NCBI GenBank assembly: GCA_965249175.1
Contig: OZ252227.1
Location: forward strand, 6,455,474-6,519,473
Direction: 5' to 3'
DNA length: 64,000 nt
Source of the DNA: Vicinamibacterales bacterium
GTDB lineage: Bacteria > Acidobacteriota > Vicinamibacteria > Vicinamibacterales > UBA8438
Part shown: piece after piece, positions 5,229 to 36,412 of the stretch
Layout: each line of letters opens with the position of its first letter
Position numbering within the stretch: position 1 is the first letter of the stretch
Position numbers and translations under genes: made by a program
The notes under the pieces: generated by a model
Database searches by the model: none
The model's input: only the letters and a program-made list of their open reading frames with translations
What the model was told of the DNA's origin: nothing

Positions 5229-7966
5229 ATGTCTCTCAGCCCTGGCGCGCGGCTCGGACCGTACGAGGTCACGGCCCGCATTGGTGCCGGCGGCATGGGG
5301 GAGGTGTACCAAGCGCGTGACACGAAGCTGGATCGGGACGTCGCGCTAAAGGTCCTGCCTGACGCCTTCACGTCCGACCCCGACCGCTTAGCCCGTTTCG
5401 AGCGGGAAGCCAGAGTCCTCGCCTCGCTGAACCATCCGAATATCGGGCACATCTACGGGCTGGAAGAAGCCGAGGGCACCTGGTGCTCGAACTGGTCGAG
5501 GGGCCGACGCTGGCGGATCGCATCGCCGACGGGCCGATCCCGATTGACGAGGCGCTCCCCATCGCGAAACAGATCGCGGAAGCCCTCGAAGCGGCGCATG
5601 AGCAGGGGATCATCCACCGCGACCTGAAACCGGCCAACGTGAAGGTGAAGGCCGACGGCACGGTGAAGGTGCTGGACTTTGGGCTGGCGAAAGCGTTTCA
5701 GCCGGAAGCGAGTGGGGCGAGTGCGTCGGAGTCGCCGACGATCTCGTTGACGGCGGCGGCGACCCAGATGGGGATGGTGATCGGGACGGCGGCGTATATG
5801 GCACCGGAGCAAGCCAGCGGCAAGGCGGTGGACAAGCGGGCGGATGTGTGGGCGTTTGGTGTCGTGCTCTACGAGATGTTGACGGGGCAGCGCGTGTTCA
5901 GCGGAAAGGACGTGTCGCATACGTTGGCCGCGGTGCTGATGAAAGACATCGAGTGGACGGGCCTCCCTTCGCGACTCCCTGCGTCGCTTGGGCGTGTGCT
6001 GCGGCGGTGCCTCGAGCGCGACCCGAAGCAGCGCCTGCGGGACATCGGTGAGGCGCGGATCGAGTTGGGCTCCGCCGCCACCGTGCCAAACTCTGTTGCT
6101 GCACCGGTAGCGGTCAGTCCGCCGCTTCAGGTCTGGCAGCGTCCCGTTCCTGCGGCCCTCGTCGCTCTGGTTCTGGTGGCGGTGACTGGCGTCGTGGTCT
6201 GGAGCCTCTCCCAGCCCGGCGTCGTTCCTGTGGACGTGATCCGATTTGTCATCCCTGAACCCGACACCGCCACGTTCGATTTCGCCAGCTCCTATCCTGA
6301 CCTTGCGATTTCCCCTGATGGCACACAGGTCGTCTACGTAGTCCGTGCCCCGGACGGTGAGCTGCAGCTCTATCTGCGGCCCATCGACCAGCTCCGTGGT
6401 GCGCCCTTGCGCGGCGCTGAAGGTGGTCAGGCACCGTTCGTCTCACCGGACGGCGAGTGGGTCGGATTCCTTAGCTCTGACAACGTGACTCTTCAAAAAG
6501 TGTCGATCTTCGGCGGCCCGCCGGTGACGCTTGCTGGATTTCCGGACTTTATCGCCGGCGCCAACTGGGAGGGCGACGACCAGATCATCGTTGGCATGGT
6601 GCGCGGGGGCCTGTTTCGAGTGCCAGCAGGCGGAAGCGAACCCGACGTCCTCACGACCCCCGATGCCGACCAGGGTGAAACCAGCCACTTCTGGCCCAGC
6701 GTTATCCCAGGCCGACGGGCCGTGCTGTTCCAGATCGCCACAGGCGGGGCCGACGCGCCCCAGTTGGCGATCCTGGAACTCGACACGGGTGAGGTGACGC
6801 GGCTCGGTCTTACCGGAACCCAGCCGCAGTATGTGTCGACGGGGCATCTCGTGTATGCCGTCCAGGATGGGTCGGTGCGGGCGGCTCCGTTTGATGCCGA
6901 GCGCCTCGAGGTGACAGGGAATCCCGTGCCCTTGCTAGAGGACGTCGTGGTGAAGAACGTCACACGTGCCTCCAACTTCAGCCTCTCAGACAACGGGCGT
7001 TTGGTGTTCATGTCGAGTGCGGGCGGGGGCGTCGCTCAGCTGTCTTCACTGGTCTGGGTGGACCGGCAAGGTCGGGAAGAGTCGCTCGGGGACGCTTGGC
7101 AGCCTGCCGACTACGTCTACCCCCGCGTCTCGCCCGACGGCACGCGGGTGGCGGTCGGGATCCTGGAGAACGCCGCTACCGACCTGTGGGTGCTTGACTT
7201 GGCGCGCCCGGGGTCACGCTCCCGCATCACCTTTGGCGGGAACAATCTCCCCGGGGCCTGGTCACCGGACGGATCGCAGTTGGCGTTCGCCGACAGTAAC
7301 GCGGCGACAAACCGCGTGCTGTTGGCTCCCGCTGACGGCAACGGTGAGGTCGAGACGCTCCTGGATCGCGGCGAGCGCCAGTTTCCGACATCGTGGGCGT
7401 CTGACGGAAACGTGTTGGCCCTCTACATCGATCGCGCGGGGGAGACCGGGCGAGATCTCGCGATGCTCCCGATGGACGGGGACCGCACGCCGGTGCCTTT
7501 CCTGGGCACGCCCTTCCAAGAGCGCGCCGGAGCGTTTTCCCCGGACGGTCGCTGGCTCGCCTACGTATCTGACGAGTCCGGGCAAGACGAGGTCTACGTG
7601 CGCCCGGTTCCGGGTCCGGGGCAACAGCACACGATCTCGACGAATGGCGGTGCGGAGCCCCTGTGGTCACGCGACGGAACCGAGCTGTTCTATCGCCTCG
7701 TGGACCAGGTTCTGGTTGTCGCGATAGACACGGCGGACTCCTTCCGCGTGGCGGCCCCTCAGGAGCTCTTTGTAGGAGCCTACGCAGCGGACTCCAGTGG
7801 GGGGTCTCACGTGAGGAACTATGACGTCACGCCAGACGGGCAACGGTTCCTCATGGTCAAGAGGGAGACCGGATCGGCGGGGACAGGTTCAGCAGAGAGT
7901 GCTCCCGAGATCACCGTCGTCCTAAACTGGCATCAAGAGCTGCTCGAGCGTGTTCCCGTTCCCTGA
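5229..7966 (+). pseudogene. Ser/Thr kinase + TM + beta-propeller, frameshifted near 5480
   Basis: Full kinase motifs split across two frames; compared with the paralog near 43910, 7 bp (agggcgc) are missing after gagggcacc. Confidence 0.88.
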
Positions 7967-17976: not shown

Positions 17977-18070
<94 letters not shown>

Positions 18071-19313: not shown

Positions 19314-20252
19314 TCACGGTCGCCACATGGCGACCGCACGGTTCGGATAGTCGAAACCGACGACAAAGTGTCTCAGCACCCCGTTCCCGAGATTCGCGCC
19401 ACGCGCAGCGAGCGGCGTGTTCCCCCGGTCGCCGTCAAGTACGAACCGGGCGTCGACAGTATCCACCTGCAACGGACCGAGGCGCACGGTGTCCACCGAA
19501 CCCAGTCGAATAGGGGCCGCTCCACCGTAACCGATCGTCGTTCCCTCCTCAGCTTCGGCCGCGACGGACTGAAGACCTAGCAACTCCACTCCCGCGCGAT
19601 AAAGTGTCACACCCGCGTTCGAACCTGTGTCTACCGTCGCACGCAAAGCCGAGCCGTTCACGAAGATCTCGGGTAGCAGTGGAAAGTTCTCGCCCTCGAA
19701 GTCCTCGAACGTGCTCTCGAACATCGGATGTGGCGCGTCTCTGCTCCACGAGGTGTCAAGGGGAAGGAACCTGATTTCCCGCTCGGGATAGTCGATTTCG
19801 AGCTTGTAGCGCCGCAGGAAGTTGTGGCCCAGGATGCCGTGTATCGGCACGCCCATCCGCTCTGACGCCGCAGACAGGTCGCCCGCCAGCGCGAGGAGAC
19901 GGCGGGCGCGGAGCCCTTGAATCTCGAGCCGGACGGGGGGGATCAGGGCCACCTCAACGCGACCGCCGACTCCCTCTCCCTGCGCCCCGAGTGGGAGCAC
20001 AAAGCCAGAAACGGACTCGGCAACCGCGAGATCGAGCACCGACGGGTCGGTCCCCGTGTCGAGGACGAGGTTATAGGGCCCACCGCCGTTCACGCGCCCA
20101 GTCAGGCGAATGACCTCGCGTGTGAACTGGAAGCTGACGGCCACCACGTCGGGGGGGGCGGCGCGTCGGAAGCGCTCGGCGCCAACGAAGGCACTGAGCA
20201 CTGCACCCGCGCTCACGATCAGGGTGAAGGCCCAACGGACGATTCGTTTCAT
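19314..20252 (-). CDS. Retropepsin-like aspartyl protease (two domains)
   Basis: VLDTG and VDTGS motifs, GILG.NFL...IDYP; N-terminal signal or anchor. Confidence 0.85.
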   Translation of the reverse strand: MKRIVRWAFTLIVSAGAVLSAFVGAERFRRAAPPDVVAVSFQFTREVIRLTGRVNGGGPYNLVLDTGTDPSVLDLAVAESVSGFVLPLGAQGEGVGGRVEVALIPPVRLEIQGLRARRLLALAGDLSAASERMGVPIHGILGHNFLRRYKLEIDYPEREIRFLPLDTSWSRDAPHPMFESTFEDFEGENFPLLPEIFVNGSALRATVDTGSNAGVTLYRAGVELLGLQSVAAEAEEGTTIGYGGAAPIRLGSVDTVRLGPLQVDTVDARFVLDGDRGNTPLAARGANLGNGVLRHFVVGFDYPNRAVAMWRP

Positions 20253-20429
20253 AGGTGCTTCCGCCTCCTGCGCGAAAATCGGCTTCTAAAGCCTCGGTCA
20301 GCGCCTGGGCGGAAACGAATCGCTCGGACTCATCCTCGGCATTCGGAGCACGTCTGAGGCCGACGACGATGACCGGGGACTTAGATGCGCAGAACCGGGA
20401 TCGAAACTGGGCTGCAACGCTGCGTGTTT

Positions 20430-20972
20430 CTAGGAAACTTGGCGCCGTTTCCGTCGCGCGATTTCCCACCTGTCCAGGCGGGCTAGGAACCCCAGTCAAC
20501 GGTGTTCCCGCGCGGGACTTCCTTGGAGTGTCCCCAGCACGTGGGGAATGGCGCGCATCTCTCAGCCCGGCACGGCCAACGCACCGGCGAGGAGGAACGA
20601 CAGACCGCCGAACCCGCTCGCGAAGGCGAGGACCGTCATCGTCACAAGGGTGGTATTGGGGCCGAACGGTGTGCCGCTCGTCGCGATACCGACGGCGCCG
20701 GAGAGCACGATGAGCCCGAGCGCGATCGTCCGGGGCCAGTGACGCAATCGAACCCCGAACCCGAGGTTGACGATGTGCGGGAAAAAGTAGAGCGCGAACG
20801 CCAGACCTAACCAGACCGTGACATCGGACGCCTCGGCGACACCCGGGAATCGGTAGCCGGTCGCGATGTTATAGAAGCCGGCTGCGAGCATTGCTCCGAG
20901 CGCGCCCCGAACGAATCGCCCGAGTGGTCGAGGGCGGTCCAGCGCGCCGGTCTCTAGAAAATCGACTTCCAC
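20430..20972 (-). CDS. Multi-TM membrane protein with two in-frame UGA codons, candidate di-selenoprotein (DUF6410-like)
   Basis: AGGAG RBS + GTG at 20972; reads ...LAVPG-UGA-EMRAIPHVLGTLQGSPAREHR-UGA-LGFLARLDRWE... to TAG at 20430; a hairpin follows each UGA. Confidence 0.72.
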
Positions 20973-21109
20973 CGCTGCTCCTGTTCGAGCCACGGCTGAC
21001 CGACACGCGTGCCGTCGGCCAGTGAGGTTCCCTTTCAACCGCTGCGCCGCGATGGCCGCACCGCGGACCCGTGCCGCCAGACCCACTGTATGCGTACATG
21101 CGACAGAAC

Positions 21110-21127
21110 ACATGTGCCAGAAGTCAC
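21110..21127 (-). promoter_or_regulatory. Putative response-regulator site RTGAC-N5-GCACATG, copy 1
   Basis: Its 17-bp core is a perfect inverted match to 23499-23515. Confidence 0.6.
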
Positions 21128-21184
21128 GAGGGTAGCCAAGACGAGGCTGATAGCCATCTCGGCAACGCGCTTCAAGGGAGCGGC

Positions 21185-21216
21185 TTGACTCTGGAGTCGA
21201 CACCAGGGTGCATACT
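21185..21216 (+). promoter_or_regulatory. MerR-type promoter/operator
   Basis: TTGACT-20 bp-CATACT with a dyad (actctgg...ccagggt) in the long spacer. Confidence 0.8.
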
Positions 21217-21222
21217 GGCGCT

Positions 21223-23183
21223 ATGGACGATGCACACGGCTCGGGCGGAGCGAGATATTGTCAAATGTTGTGGATCGGTCATCAGCGTGATCAGGCGGCC
21301 ACCTTCCGATCTCCCTCGTTGTTTCGCTCCTGCTGTACCCCGTCAATGAACGTCACGCCGGCGCGGACGAGTGGCAGCAGATGCGCGCCATTGAGCCGAC
21401 GCCAGCGCTGCTGTGCCATCTCGAGCAGCTTGTAGGCCATCAACAGGCCCTTGGTGCGCGAGCCCGCGCCTTTGGTCACGCGCTGCCGGAGTCGGACCGT
21501 GGCGAATGGCGACTCGATGACGTTGCTCGTGCGCACGTGCTGCCAATGCTCAGCTGGCAGGGCAAAGTGCGTGAGGAGGCGGTCGCGGTCTGCGTCCAGG
21601 CACGCCGCCGCCTTCGGGTACTTGGCCTCGTACTCGGCGATGAAGACGTCCATGGCCTCCTCGGCGTGTGCCCGCGTCTCGGCGTACATGATCTCGCGGA
21701 GCGCGCGCTTCGCTTTCGGCTGTAATCGCTTTGGCAATTTGTCGAGCACGTTGCCCATCTTGTGACACCAGTCGCGGAGCTCTCGCGTGTCCGGCCACAC
21801 GTCGCGCACGGCCGCCCAGAAACCCAGGGCGCCGTCGCCGACCGCCCCCACCGGGGCCCGCATGCCGCGCCGCTGGAGGTCCCGCAGCACCGTCGCCCAG
21901 CTGTCGGTGCTCTCGCGGTAGCCGTCCTCCAGGGCCACGAGCTTCTTGGTCCCATCGGGCCGTACGCCGATGATCACCAGCGTACAGAGCCGATCGTCCT
22001 CGAGCCGGATGTTGAAATGGATGCCGTCGACCCACACGTACACGTAGTCACGATCGGCCAGGTCCCGCTGGCGGAACCGCCGGTAGTCCTCTTCCCACAC
22101 CGCCGTGAGGCGCGCGATGTTGGTCGCGCTGAGGCCGGCCGCGTCATCCCCCAATAGCACCGGCAGCGCTTCGCGGAAATCGCCCGTCGACAGACCGCGC
22201 AGATAGAGGATCGGCAGCACCTCCGCCACCTTGGGCGAGCGACGCATGTAGGGGGGCAAGATCCGACTCGTGAACCGCTCCCGCTGGCCCGCGCCGTTGA
22301 CCCTTTTGTCGTTCACCCGAGGAGCATGCACCTCGAGCGTACCTGCCCCGCACGTCACCTTCCGCGCCTGGGCCCGACCATTCCGAACGACCAGCCGGCG
22401 TCCCCGCGCGTCCCGCTCCTCGCCGTGGGCCTCGATGTACTGCCCGACCTCCACCGCCAGGGCCGTCATCAACATCCGCCGGGCTCCCTCCCGGGCCAGC
22501 TCGTCCACCGTCTGCGCACCGCGCTCTTCCGGCGGAACTTCGTTGTCTGCTCCATCGTTGTCGAGTACCTTCAGCATGGGTGGCGGCTCCTTTCACCGGC
22601 CTGCCAGCCGGAGTTTTCGCGTTGCTCACGCGAAAGGATACGCCGCCTTCTTCAGACTGCCGATCCACAACTTCTGGTTATATCTCGGCGGAGCCACCAC
22701 GTCGGCGTACCGAATCGGAGAGCTGGCAACACTGACCCAGCTGACACCCGATACATTGCGCTACTACGAGCGGCTCTAGGGCTGCTCGGCAAGCCGCGTC
22801 GTAGTCCGGGCGGATTCAGGCTGTATAGCCGTGACGCGGTGCCGCAAGTGCGCTTCGTGAAGCAGGCCCAGGCTCTCGGCCTCGAGCTCGGCGAGATCCG
22901 CCAACTTGCCGGTGCCAATGGCGCGCGCGGACTGGCGCAATGCCGCCAGGTGCAGCCGGTGCTGCTGGCCAGGCTCGCTGAGCTGGACACGCGCCTCGCG
23001 GAGTTGCGCGGGCTCCGCCGGACGCTCAGGCGCGCCTTGGCGGACTGCGAGGAGCGGCTCGCAAGCCAGCCGGACGCCGCGTGTCCCGTGGTCGAGGAAT
23101 TGGAGGCGCGTGCGGCGCGCCCTCGGAGGCCCAGCCGCAAGACGGCACGCGCGCACGGCCCTCGACGAGTGAGCAAACCATGA
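21223..23183 (+). pseudogene. MerR-family metal-responsive regulator, disrupted by IS256 and a 2-bp frameshift near 22776
   Basis: YRIGELA...TLRYYERLGLL..P.RS.GGFRLY, with three Cys (QCRQ, DCEE, ACPVV). Confidence 0.88.
21252..22686 (-). mobile_element. IS256-family element, copy 1 (1435 bp; transposase 21291-22577)
   Basis: gagata...tatctc ends, 8-bp TSD ggcggagc; Mutator-type DDE transposase. Confidence 0.95.
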
Positions 23184-23501
23184 AGGCTGAGCTGTACTAT
23201 TTCGATGGGTGCCCTTCATACCAGAGGCGCTGGACAACCTGAAACAGGCCCTGCGCAGCGAACAGCGTTCCGACGAGGTCGAGATGATTCCGGTCGCCGA
23301 TGTTGCGGATGCTCGAGCCAGCGGTTCATCGGGTCACCGACCATTCGCATCGACGGTATCGATGTGGAGGGCGCGGCGGCGGAAACGCGTGGATACGGGT
23401 ATGGGTGCCGCGTTTACACTGACGGCGGCCGCGCCGTCGGCTGGCCGACGGTGGACCAGATTCGGGAGGCGCTCCGGCGACGGCGCCGCACGTTCCCATG
23501 A
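23180..23501 (+). pseudogene. Thioredoxin-like protein of the type found in mer-associated loci, two frameshifts
   Basis: MKAELYYFDGCPSY ... FIGSPTIRIDGIDV ... YGCRVY ... GWPT across frames. Confidence 0.75.
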
Positions 23502-23515
23502 CTTCTGGCACATGT
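23498..23515 (+). promoter_or_regulatory. Putative response-regulator site, copy 2
   Basis: atgacttctggcacatgt upstream of the histidine kinase gene. Confidence 0.6.
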
Positions 23516-23777: not shown

Positions 23778-24959
23778 ATGTCGAGCACACGGCGACGCCA
23801 CCGAACAGCCCAGAACCTCCTCCGGAGTGCGGGCGCCGTCACGCTGACCCTGGCCGCGCTTCCGGCCGTGTCGATGCTGCTGGGCGTGCGGCTCATCCCC
23901 GGCGAGTTGCCCACACTGTCGCTGAGCGCGCTGTGGGTCTGGCTCGCGGCCGCGGTGTGCTACGCCATCGCGTTCTGGCGCACCGCCGCCGCCGTTGGCA
24001 TCGATCGGCTCCAGACCAGGGCCAGACTCCTCGTCGGCGTGCAGGCCGTGGCTGCCCTGGTGATGTTCTCGCTCGTGTGCAGTGGATACGAGACGACGCA
24101 GCTCGTCGTGGTCGCGGCTCAGATTGGACTGCTGTTTTCGCTCCCTCTGAGCATCGGTCTGGTGCTCCTGCAATCAGTGATTCAAGGCTGGATCGCGATC
24201 GACCACTTTGGCGTCATGATGGCGCTCTGGTGGATCGGCGCCCTCACGCTTCCGTACTCGTCCTTGGCGCTGCTCACCGCGCGTATGGCTGCCAATCAGG
24301 CGAGGGCCGGCGACGAGCTCGCCAGCGCAAACGCCCAGCTTCGCGCAGCGCAAGCGCTACTCGCCGACAGCAGTCGGATGTCGGAGCGCGTGCGGATCTC
24401 CCAGGAGCTCCACGACCTGCTCGGACATCATCTGACCGGGTTGAGCCTGCATCTCGAGGCCGCCCGCCATCAGGCGCAGGACAAATCGCTCGACGAGATC
24501 CGCACCTGTCAGTCGCTGACGAAGCTGCTCCTCAGTGATGTGCGCGATGCCGTCAGCTCTCTCAGGGGACAGGACACCCTGGACGTGACCAAGGCCCTCT
24601 TGCCCCTCGTGACGGAGATTCCCCACCCGGAGGTGCATCTCAGCGTTCCTGCGGACTTGGCGGTGGCCGACCCGGAGCGTGCGCACGCGCTGGTCCGCTG
24701 CGTGCAGGAAATCGTAACGAATACCGTCAGACATGCGAGTGCGGACAACCTGTGGATCGAGTTCGTACAGACCGATGACGGGGTGCATGTCCAGGCGCAC
24801 GACGACGGCAGAGCCACCAAGAACTGGACGCTGGGCCAGGGGCTCAAGGGGATGCGAGATCGCGTGGAGCACTTCGGCGGTCGTCTCGAGATCGACGCGC
24901 GTCCGTCCCACGGGTTTCGTCTGGACGCCTGGATCCCGTTCAGCGGAGACACGCCGTGA
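23778..24959 (+). CDS. Membrane sensor histidine kinase (HisKA_3, DesK-like)
   Basis: ERVRISQELHDLLGHHL, QEIVTNTVRH, DDG, GQGLKGMRDRV. Confidence 0.93.
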   Translation: MSSTRRRHRTAQNLLRSAGAVTLTLAALPAVSMLLGVRLIPGELPTLSLSALWVWLAAAVCYAIAFWRTAAAVGIDRLQTRARLLVGVQAVAALVMFSLVCSGYETTQLVVVAAQIGLLFSLPLSIGLVLLQSVIQGWIAIDHFGVMMALWWIGALTLPYSSLALLTARMAANQARAGDELASANAQLRAAQALLADSSRMSERVRISQELHDLLGHHLTGLSLHLEAARHQAQDKSLDEIRTCQSLTKLLLSDVRDAVSSLRGQDTLDVTKALLPLVTEIPHPEVHLSVPADLAVADPERAHALVRCVQEIVTNTVRHASADNLWIEFVQTDDGVHVQAHDDGRATKNWTLGQGLKGMRDRVEHFGGRLEIDARPSHGFRLDAWIPFSGDTP

Positions 24960-25600
24960 TTCGCGTGTGCCTGGTCGAAGATCAGACCATCGTCCGCCAG
25001 GGGCTGCGGACGTTGCTCGATCTCGTCGATGACATCGAGGTCGTGGCCGAGGCCGTCGATGGCGAGGACGCCGTGCGGCGCATTCCCGACGCGACCCCGG
25101 ACGTAGTGCTGCTGGATATGCGGATGCCCAAGCTCGACGGGTTGGGCGTCCTGGCGCAGCTTGGCGCCCAGCACCGCCTGCCACCCACCATCATCCTGAC
25201 CACGTTCGATGACGACAGCACGGTGCTCGACGGGATCCGCGCGGGCGCCAAGGGCTTTCTCTTGAAGGATGTGTCGCTGGACCAGCTGACGGGCGCGATC
25301 CGCACGGTCGCCGCCGGCGGCACCATGATTCAGCCCGCGGTGACGGATCGCATCCTCAAGGGATTGCATGGCGTCCCTCGCGAGTTCCCCAGCCTCGATC
25401 CGCCGGACCCCTTGACCGCGCGTGAGACGGAGATCCTCCGGCTCATCGCCGGCGGCTACAGCAACCGAGAGATCGCGGGCGCGCTCGATCTGGCCGAAGG
25501 CACCGTCAAGAACCACATTTCGAGCATCCTGTCCAAGCTCGGAGTCCGGGACCGCACGCGGTCCGTGCTGAAGGCGGTCGAGCTCGGGCTGATCCAGTAG
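24956..25600 (+). CDS. NarL/LuxR-family response regulator
   Basis: Receiver domain (EDQ, D..MP, LTTF, LLK) + LTARE...GYSNREIA...TVKNH HTH. Confidence 0.95.
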   Translation: MIRVCLVEDQTIVRQGLRTLLDLVDDIEVVAEAVDGEDAVRRIPDATPDVVLLDMRMPKLDGLGVLAQLGAQHRLPPTIILTTFDDDSTVLDGIRAGAKGFLLKDVSLDQLTGAIRTVAAGGTMIQPAVTDRILKGLHGVPREFPSLDPPDPLTARETEILRLIAGGYSNREIAGALDLAEGTVKNHISSILSKLGVRDRTRSVLKAVELGLIQ

Positions 25601-35018: not shown

Positions 35019-36122
35019 ATGCGTATCAGCTTGAACCAAGCGCGGTGGTTTCGATTCCGGCGCTCAGGTCTTGGGGAGCCGTTCGCCACTCCGCCTGGGA
35101 CGGCGCGGCGTCTCATCGGCGTGCAGGCCCAGATGAGCGCGGCCGCCGACATCGCGTTCTTCAACCGCACCGCCGGCGTGTCACCTGACTCGCTCGCTCA
35201 GGCGCGTGTCGGGACACGGTCGGTGGTTCGGCTCTGGGGGCAACGCCACACGCTGCATCTCTACGCGGCGGACGATTGGCCACTGCTGTGTACGGTCTTT
35301 CGGGACCGCGAATCCGTGACAACGAAGCGACTAGCGAAAGCGGCGTTGCTTCCCGAGTTTCGACGACTGGTGAAGCGCGTGGAACGGCGCCTCGCTGCCG
35401 GTGAGCGCCTCACCTATCGAGACGCGTCGTCGAAGAAGCTCGAAGGCACCCTGGACGAGTGGGGAGGGGTAGGCTATGCCACCTTTCGGAAACTCGTGCG
35501 TGCCGGCGTCGTCTGCCACGGCCCAGATGACGGCGTTGAATCGACGTTCGTCCATCGGAGATCATGGCTACCAGACCTGCCCTGGACGGTGCCGGACCCC
35601 AGTGCGGCCTACGTCGAACTCACGTGTCGATACCTTGGCACGTATGGTCCAGCGACACCCCGTGATCTAGCGTTCTGGTGCGGCGCGACGATCACGAACG
35701 CTGAGCATTGGATCGCGGCCGCCGGAGGTCGGATTGCGGACGTCACAGTCGATGGGCAACCTGCCCACTGTCGCACCGAGGATCTGGAAGTCGTCGCGGA
35801 AAAGCCGCCACCCGCCGGCCAATGGCCGGTGAAGCTCCTGCACCGCTTCGATCCGTTGCTGCTGGGTACCAAAGACAAGAGTTGGCTCATCGAGCCGCGG
35901 TACTACAAGCGGGTCTGGCGCTCCGCCGGCCATATCGACGCCGTTGTCCTCGTTGGCGGGCGAATCGCCGGCACGTGGCGCTACGACAAGCAAACGAAGG
36001 GGCTCAGGATCACCGTCAAGCCGTTCGAGCCGTTCAGCCGTCGGGTCGACCGCGCGGTGGCACTCCAGGCCAGAACGCTGGCCAGGTTCATGGGGCTCGA
36101 TCTCCTCGAACTCACGAGCTAG
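35019..36122 (+). CDS. HTH_42 (AlkZ/YcaQ-like) DNA glycosylase family protein
   Basis: GVQAQ motif, WGQRHTLH, YLGTYGPATPRDLAFW, FDP.LLG, G.IAGTW. Confidence 0.85.
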   Translation: MRISLNQARWFRFRRSGLGEPFATPPGTARRLIGVQAQMSAAADIAFFNRTAGVSPDSLAQARVGTRSVVRLWGQRHTLHLYAADDWPLLCTVFRDRESVTTKRLAKAALLPEFRRLVKRVERRLAAGERLTYRDASSKKLEGTLDEWGGVGYATFRKLVRAGVVCHGPDDGVESTFVHRRSWLPDLPWTVPDPSAAYVELTCRYLGTYGPATPRDLAFWCGATITNAEHWIAAAGGRIADVTVDGQPAHCRTEDLEVVAEKPPPAGQWPVKLLHRFDPLLLGTKDKSWLIEPRYYKRVWRSAGHIDAVVLVGGRIAGTWRYDKQTKGLRITVKPFEPFSRRVDRAVALQARTLARFMGLDLLELTS

Positions 36123-36412
36123 CCAGTGAGCCCGTTCTTTGCGGGCGTTGCATGGGCTCCGTCATCGTCCGAGACTTTCGCCTCGATTCCCGCCTGTTTC
36201 TGACGCTCGCGCCTGCCGGAGGCCGGGGTCATCAAACATCGGTTTCTGAGCCGAGCCTAGCAGGAGCGCTCTGCGTTCGTGGCCCCGCTCTTCCTCCCGG
36301 AGGGGTTACCCCCCAGGCCGATGCCGCTCGTGCGCGTAGCTCACTAGCGGACTGGAGTCCTGGAGCTTCCTGGGCATTCTGAGCGCGGTCCCCCGGCCGG
36401 CTGCCGGCGCCC

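Follow-up and report, generated by a model that had tools for sequence, protein, structure and literature searches.

Background

Bacterial selenoproteins made through SelB and a SECIS element share three marks, a UGA codon aligned with a Cys of the homologues, a consensus hairpin and the presence of selABCD (PMC13188914); the legend to Fig. 2 of that paper places the hairpin loop 16-37 nt downstream of the UGA, with G at the first two loop positions and a folding energy of <=-7.5 kcal/mol. Some of the described families belong to mercury-type systems, namely the putative mercuric transport protein (PF02411), the UxxU metal-binding protein (NF041115), the MerT/CopZ fusion (NF045683) and the DF family (NF049942), in which selenocysteine (Sec) replaces Cys in heavy-metal clusters. 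The Cys-based MerT, MerF and MerE are small inner-membrane proteins of mer operons, and in PMC5715351 the cytoplasmic Cys pair of MerT is described as passing Hg(II) on to MerA. A very high affinity of selenium for mercury is pointed out by Haft and Gwadz (bioRxiv 2022.07.06.499078). A last group, DUF6410 (PF19948) and the YgaP-like TM domain (PF11127), consists of proteins in which a helix ends at a conserved Cys; our literature search found no paper on DUF6410.

Here we follow up a prediction from a 64,000-nt stretch of a Vicinamibacterales genome (GCA_965249175.1, contig OZ252227.1; hereafter the window), according to which a membrane protein with two Sec residues is hidden behind two in-frame UGA codons. 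The locus differs from each of these systems. Compared with the usual SelB/SECIS arrangement, it has two UGAs, separated by 22 codons, and a hairpin for each of them. The Sec mer-type proteins occur as its neighbours or fusion partners, but no similarity to them was detected, and both Sec residues are predicted to lie in a cytoplasmic tail after four helices and not in a CC or CxxC motif. Unlike MerT, MerF and MerE, the family lacks a helix-1 Cys pair and any profile match (PF02411, PF11431, PF05052), and the protein and its 94 aligned members reach neither the DUF6410 nor the YgaP-like cut-off. The comparisons below make a real, new family of di-Sec membrane proteins well supported; its function we infer.

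Results

The minus-strand frame runs from a GTG at 20972 to a TAG at 20432-20430 and, with UGA read as Sec, gives 180 residues including U137 and U159 (Table 1). Its tail has the layout PG-UGA(20564-20562)-EMRAIPHVLGTLQGSPAREHR-UGA(20498-20496)-LGFLARLDRWEIARRKRRQVS-TAG(20432-20430), in agreement with the original prediction that the frame stays open past both UGAs. That standard annotation would truncate such a gene was also foreseen, and the public protein record of the same DNA (P0002) does end at residue 136. In the contigs of three sequencing runs, which represent at most two samples, one of them probably the source of the window, neither UGA showed an alternative letter, which makes a sequencing error unlikely. 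Neither a sigma-70-like promoter nor a terminator was found in 20200-21300. A search for RNA records carrying the gene listed none, an outcome with no bearing on expression.

Table 1. Features at and around the di-Sec gene (window positions)
Feature	Position	Strand	Basis or remark
CDS, 180 aa with both UGAs as Sec	20430..20972	-	translation, homologues, structure model
UGA codon 137, PG-U-EMR	20562..20564	-	Cys in 77/79 relatives covering the site
UGA codon 159	20496..20498	-	Cys in 78/79 relatives covering the site; UGA in 29/29 UGA-form loci
AGGAG, ribosome-binding-like site	20978..20982	-	sequence; 5 nt upstream of the GTG
SECIS-like hairpin 1, whose CCCCA / TGGGG core does not vary among UGA forms	20531..20547	-	loop 20 nt after UGA
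SECIS-like hairpin 2	20465..20482	-	loop 20 nt after UGA
MerR-family promoter/operator: TTGACT, 20-bp spacer, CATACT	21185..21216	+	points away from the di-Sec gene
Broken MerR-family regulator gene	21223..23183	+	IS256-family insertion and TAG at 22777-22779; assembly only
DF-family thioredoxin-fold gene, frameshifted near 23224	23180..23501	+	comparison with paralogous locus
HisKA_3 sensor and LuxR-type response regulator	23778..25600	+	context only

A search of 1.84 billion representatives returned 192 clusters at E <= 0.001, 150 of which were listed. Both positions are Cys in nine of the nine full-length first matches. From the listed relatives and the first matches we built an alignment of 94 rows, near full-length and PG-truncated, with fragments and fusions excluded; among the 79 rows that cover each site, 77 have Cys at position 137 and 78 have it at position 159. 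The original prediction expected relatives ending in PGCE with Cys at both positions, as opposed to Trp or Arg, and this is what the alignment contains. Read-through of the UGAs as Trp is ruled out by the Cys of the homologues.

Our DNA scans demanded the first UGA only and left the second free. In genomes, 19 of 25 loci were true homologues, among them members of the Acidobacteriota, Chloroflexota and Latescibacterota, and six were chance matches; all 19 have UGA at site 2. The loose metagenome pattern gave at least 120 loci, of which 112 of the 120 listed were chance matches and eight were true homologues by profile score; all eight have UGA at site 2, and three of them are identical to one another here and are without the 5' part. 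To these 27 loci, profile searches in which stops were read through added two more (L181 and L227/L229), each with two UGAs. The predicted conservation of UGA in relatives is thus seen at both sites in 29 of 29 UGA loci among the matches listed. One of them, L170, has an additional in-frame UGA and may be broken. Among the first 160 retrieved proteins, 17 stop at PG ahead of site 1, as would be expected of truncated UGA forms; only P0002 was matched to its DNA here. In quick and FastTree trees, rows with UGA and PG-truncated rows tend to group (8 changes, compared with 29 when shuffled), with 30 of the 34 in one group of local support 90 and no single supported clade.

The two hairpins are where they had been predicted, each loop with the same 20-nt spacing from its UGA and G at its first two positions, and fold at -8.4 and -10.6 kcal/mol. 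In our own simplified implementation, which is not bSECISearch, both satisfy the published constraints, and the claimed fit to the bacterial SECIS model holds in that sense. Hairpin stability alone was rejected as proof, not being significant against shuffles: the folding z-scores are near zero (+0.17, -0.89, +0.41 and -0.85). About 10% of 3000 random TGA triplets from the same genome, whose GC content is 66.6%, have such a hairpin at <=-7.5 kcal/mol. By themselves the hairpins are weak evidence, and it is their conservation in relatives that lifts them above chance. Of two silent bases that the search pattern had left free, one makes the Pro six codons past site 1 CCC and the other makes the Gly ten codons past it GGG, each in all 26 distinct UGA forms, compared with genome usages of 26% and 24%; of 12 Cys controls, 11 from the family and one a distant paralogue, not one has CCC at this Pro. 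A hairpin at <=-5 kcal/mol follows site 1 in 26/26 UGA forms against 5/12 Cys controls, and site 2 in 21/26 against 1/12, counts for which Fisher values are overstated because the kin are not independent. Hairpin 2 is shifted in register by one base in five Chloroflexota sequences, one of which has a C-G to U-A exchange, and by our own rule is only weak in five others (four Terriglobia and L170). Covariation is slight because the core is invariant: five of the seven helix-1 pairs never vary, and two pairs overall change on both sides.

In the genome itself, selA, selB and selD score above their curated cut-offs and selC is present as a tRNA-Sec with anticodon TCA, so all four genes that the original prediction listed for checking are there. 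Across the 18 host genomes of UGA forms, selA is above cut-off in 17 and the remaining one has selB. The three Cys-form genomes tested also have selB, and the window's genome holds three Cys paralogues, one without its 5' part; thus the Cys forms are not simply the version for selenium-less hosts. Together, Cys at both sites of the homologues, the UGA pairs at 29/29 loci, the silent-site constraint and the Sec machinery lend strong support to the di-Sec reading, and we consider it very likely that both UGAs are recoded in a SelB-dependent manner, each through its own hairpin.

AlphaFold2, run with the 94-row alignment, gave a model of pLDDT 95.9 and pTM 0.88 with predicted membrane helices at 16-39, 51-72, 79-99 and 105-132 and short tail helices at 138-150 and 162-179. 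Basic segments of membrane proteins face the cytoplasm (the positive-inside rule). In the alignment, the number of Lys and Arg is 3.9 for the N-terminus, 2.5 for loop 2 and 5.9 for the C-tail, and 0.8 and 0.1 for loops 1 and 3; the N-terminus, loop 2 and the C-tail are therefore predicted to be cytoplasmic, and so are both Sec residues, U137 where helix 4 ends on that side and U159 within the C-tail. The best-conserved residues (G18, R19, R22, G136, E138, R140, D167, W169 and E170) are mostly on that side as well. No Cys within the membrane or on its outer side is conserved in the 94 rows, and the first helix has no more than a minority Cys at position 29 (15/94).

Family searches placed the protein only remotely. 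Pfam and NCBIfam scans of the protein and its relatives gave no family above cut-off, and 13 members compared with NCBIfam 20.0 gave a single chance match (E 0.051). The best hit among sequences of solved structures had E 1.2, and Foldseek returned no match at E <= 0.001. A second fold search reached Z 5.6 over 72 residues, a score common for helical bundles and one that barely tests the residues past 136; this outcome does not show a new fold. Atlas look-alikes reached at best 0.86 and had no common family, and in a plasmid collection P0020 was unmatched and the single weak match was to the fused domain of P0017. Profile and fold searches detected neither a thioredoxin fold nor a CxxC-type motif. 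DUF6410 was not matched by the protein, nor by the 94 members among the 25 of 55 families listed, but three of the four distant relatives reached through the family profile, with ends of the form PGCE...C...PLD, pass its cut-off. The YgaP-like TM domain gave weak matches in 8/94 members (best E 0.032, all below cut-off) and is not among the listed fold-search matches. The family is probably a remote branch of the DUF6410/YgaP-like group, a link that is transitive.

The original prediction placed the gene next to a MerR/thioredoxin-like pair, and the pair is there, but both of its genes are pseudogenes in this copy. An IS256-family element at 21252-22686, flanked by an 8-bp duplication (GGCGGAGC, at 21244 and 22687), splits the merR-like gene. 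Compared with a paralogous locus of the same genome (~C1:28970-37256), genes of merP-like and merT-like type have been lost in a 764-bp deletion after the DF-like gene. Intact at that locus is a run made up of a merR-like gene, a DF gene (NF049942, over cut-off), a merP-like gene with GMT-UGA-GGC and a merT-like gene, with the same two-component pair further downstream of the last. A 32-nt remnant of the di-Sec gene, including the second UGA, lies beside its promoter. These remains suggest a duplicated ancestor in which the di-Sec gene diverged from a metal operon, one copy having kept the operon and the other the gene.

Control of the gene by the local two-component system, as had been thought probable, finds no support: the pair lies on the opposite strand at a distance of 2.8 kb, and it accompanies a DUF6410 gene both at the paralogous locus and in another genome (G201), the latter having a Cys form two genes away. 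The nearest regulatory site to the di-Sec gene is the MerR-family operator, which is directed away from it. The palindrome of this operator (21188-21209) has 2/22 mismatches to the ZntR-site consensus published in PMC1526738. The MerR-like regulator scores 102 bits with ZntR and 93 with MerR, under every specific cut-off, and together with the ZntR-like operator this leaves the metal not fixed.

Several smaller features surround this unit. The IS256-family element has more than 35 near-identical copies, full or partial, in the genome. A 16-nt sequence flanks the broken merR-DF unit in inverted orientation, at 21110-21125 (-) and 23500-23515 (+); the third of its three genomic copies is at the paralogous locus. 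The DUF6410 gene that follows the two-component pair is mostly deleted in the window (~25884) and present in the paralogous locus. Many unrelated contigs of the sequencing runs contain a match to the operator (21183-21216), which suggests a widespread regulon in that community. Between ~10600 and 18070 of the window lies a run of ORFs that, from their translations, we take to be primase/VapE-like, terminase-like and integrase-like; it ends at a tRNA-Ser (17977-18070) and is probably an integrated element just past the downstream neighbours of the di-Sec gene.

Gene calls at the other loci came from our own simple ORF scorer and cover 3-6 kb. Metal-handling genes lie near 9 of the 22 UGA-form genome loci, the window included, and these nine represent about five independent lineages; the neighbours are MerF, MerE, MerB, a MerT-HMA protein with GMT-UGA-SGC, and MerA-like, CopZ-like and CusB-like proteins. 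The order at L157 is merR, merF (over cut-off), a MerA-like flavoprotein, the di-Sec gene and a CopZ-like gene, and L229 has a flavoprotein of the L157 type before the di-Sec gene and the start of a CopZ-like gene after it, as judged from translation only. At L151, L161, L162 and L171 the MerT-HMA fusion with GMT-UGA-SGC is directly upstream of the di-Sec gene, with a MerE-like gene downstream in two and a MerA with an SCCAG tail in three. DF and MerB genes lie near the di-Sec gene at L166, and outer-membrane efflux and CusB-like genes at L155. At 13 of the 22 loci no metal gene was found within 3-6 kb. At the four Terriglobia loci (two scanned), a LiaF-like small gene or a LytTR-type system lies alongside. 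One of 12 Cys-form loci examined has a mer context, and at the other 11 no mer genes were seen nearby; at that one (G013) the Cys form is the final gene of a merR-trx-DF-merP(UGA)-merT run. Among the 150 listed relatives, three Cys forms carry a fused DF-like domain that has two invariant Cys (E ~1e-9, under cut-off), five are joined to an unnamed membrane domain in which an HC motif is conserved, and one is a fusion with DMP19.

Discussion

The most satisfactory interpretation of these findings, to which we give a probability of about one in two, is a four-helix di-Sec membrane protein whose selenol pair captures mercury-like metals and passes them to soluble partners. In this scheme, SelB would read each UGA using the hairpin 19-21 nt downstream, and U137 and U159 would make up a two-coordinate metal site on the inner surface of the membrane, in the role that the cytoplasmic Cys pair of MerT has ahead of MerA (PMC5715351). 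Once MerT, MerF or MerE had let in Hg(II) or some other thiophilic ion, the Sec pair would buffer it and hand it on, either to a thioredoxin-fold protein of DF type or to a MerA-like reductase. Taken on its own, capture and hand-off by two selenols at the cytoplasmic face seems to us slightly short of an even chance. The affinity of selenium for mercury would fit capture, yet it raises the question of release, as binding might trap the metal instead of passing it on. The evidence against a metal role is that most loci (13/22 of the UGA form and 11/12 of the Cys form) have no mer-type gene in their vicinity, and that the alignment, unlike MerT and MerE, has no conserved Cys in the membrane or outside. 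The metal- or redox-handling role named in the original prediction has support from the neighbourhoods and fusions and is a putative one.

The best-placed alternative, which we nonetheless think unlikely, is that U137 and U159 do not bind metal and instead cycle between diselenide and selenols in a membrane-anchored redox relay against thiol or electrophile stress, with electrons passing to and from either a flavoprotein disulfide reductase or a thioredoxin-fold partner of DF type. The fusions to a DF-like domain with its two invariant Cys would suit such a relay, as would neighbours of the redoxin, CcdA/DsbD-like, glutaredoxin and disulfide-reductase kinds and the majority of loci that have no metal genes, and a redox role is presumed for most uncharacterised selenoproteins (PMC13188914). 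However, the family has neither a CxxC-type motif nor a thioredoxin fold, the informative contexts are of mer type (MerF, MerE, MerB and MerT), and the DF genes themselves adjoin MerB or MerT/MerP.

It seems improbable that the protein is itself a metal transporter like MerT, MerF or MerE and carries ions through the membrane to its Sec residues. Its small size, its polytopic form and its place in mer-type operons with MerP-like and MerA-like neighbours would suit that role, but these operons already contain such transporters, no MerT, MerF, MerE or MerC model matches any member, and the Cys pair that MerT and MerE need in their first membrane helix (PMC5715351) is missing from the family. Marginally less probable again is a sulfur or selenium carrier related to YgaP and DUF6410, which would hold a persulfide or perselenide at the membrane. 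The weak YgaP-like matches and the distant relatives that pass the DUF6410 cut-off lean that way, and so does the Cys of YgaP at the end of its second helix (PMC4730233), but every YgaP match is below cut-off, no rhodanese fusion occurs among the 150 listed relatives, and the loci examined show no recurrent genes for rhodanese or sulfur oxidation. That the UGAs are true stops, of a pseudogene or a 136-residue protein, would sit with the decayed merR-like and DF-like neighbours, the reduction of the genome's second copy to a 32-nt remnant and the three Cys paralogues in the same genome, but is very improbable indeed, since decay would not put two independent nonsense changes precisely at both conserved Cys at 29 loci spanning at least three named phyla, with the coding sequence beyond the UGAs conserved and silent sites fixed. 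The window's own copy of the di-Sec gene could be unexpressed.

None of the 119 families in Table 1 of PMC13188914 fits by description or motif, the only comparison made with those that lack a model, and no NCBIfam model matches; the families of Haft and Tolstoy 2025 are covered through that table and NCBIfam 20.0. Our literature search found no description of this di-Sec family, which could be among the unvalidated candidates of Deng et al. 2026. It adds a family to the approximately 119 prokaryotic ones listed, is among the few with two Sec residues, and its members are truncated in databases. As Cys/Cys and Sec/Sec versions share one genome, the contribution of selenium at a mercury-binding site would be directly testable, and the compact region with two UGAs and two hairpins is a natural model for multi-Sec insertion in bacteria. 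More tentatively, and with the odds clearly against it, the protein may be a new part of heavy-metal resistance, a membrane-anchored Sec...Sec clamp facing the cytoplasm in a selenium-based mer pathway of Chloroflexota and Acidobacteriota. If so, the same operons would carry, likewise as selenoproteins, a chaperone (GMT-U-xxC), a transporter-chaperone fusion and even a flavoprotein reductase (GGT-U-VNEGC), and there would be a natural cassette of 100 nt holding a pair of UGAs and a pair of SECIS elements, and a wider superfamily of C/C, C/U and U/U forms.

Other UGA-containing genes were encountered on the way. In three Chloroflexota genomes, a MerA/dihydrolipoyl-dehydrogenase-like flavoprotein has GGT-UGA-VNEGC, the UGA taking the place of the first Cys of the redox-active CxxxxC (L157:4063-5440 (-), L171:2906-4040 (-) and L229 ~5994-7250 (-)), directly upstream of or near the di-Sec gene. 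The motif is absent from Table 1 of PMC13188914 and no paper on it was found; this is possibly another unlisted selenoprotein, with a tentative hairpin. A MerP/CopZ-like lipoprotein with GMT-UGA-xxC is encoded at L175:9003-9362 (-) (G000:C1 ~36003-36362) and L211:5927-6265 (-), nearest to NF041115 (79.6 bits against a cut-off of 95). Three proteins (P0054, P0131 and P0155, seen as proteins only) have Cys at site 1 and end just ahead of site 2, and are probably mixed Cys/UGA forms of the four-helix family. Lastly, short relatives of ~105 aa with two predicted helices (L028/L224, L029, L183, L184/L225 and L192) combine a Cys at site 1 with a UGA at site 2. The UGA is in every case followed at the same spacing by a CCCT-TGGAC-AGGG hairpin, and these relatives constitute a candidate second selenoprotein subfamily.
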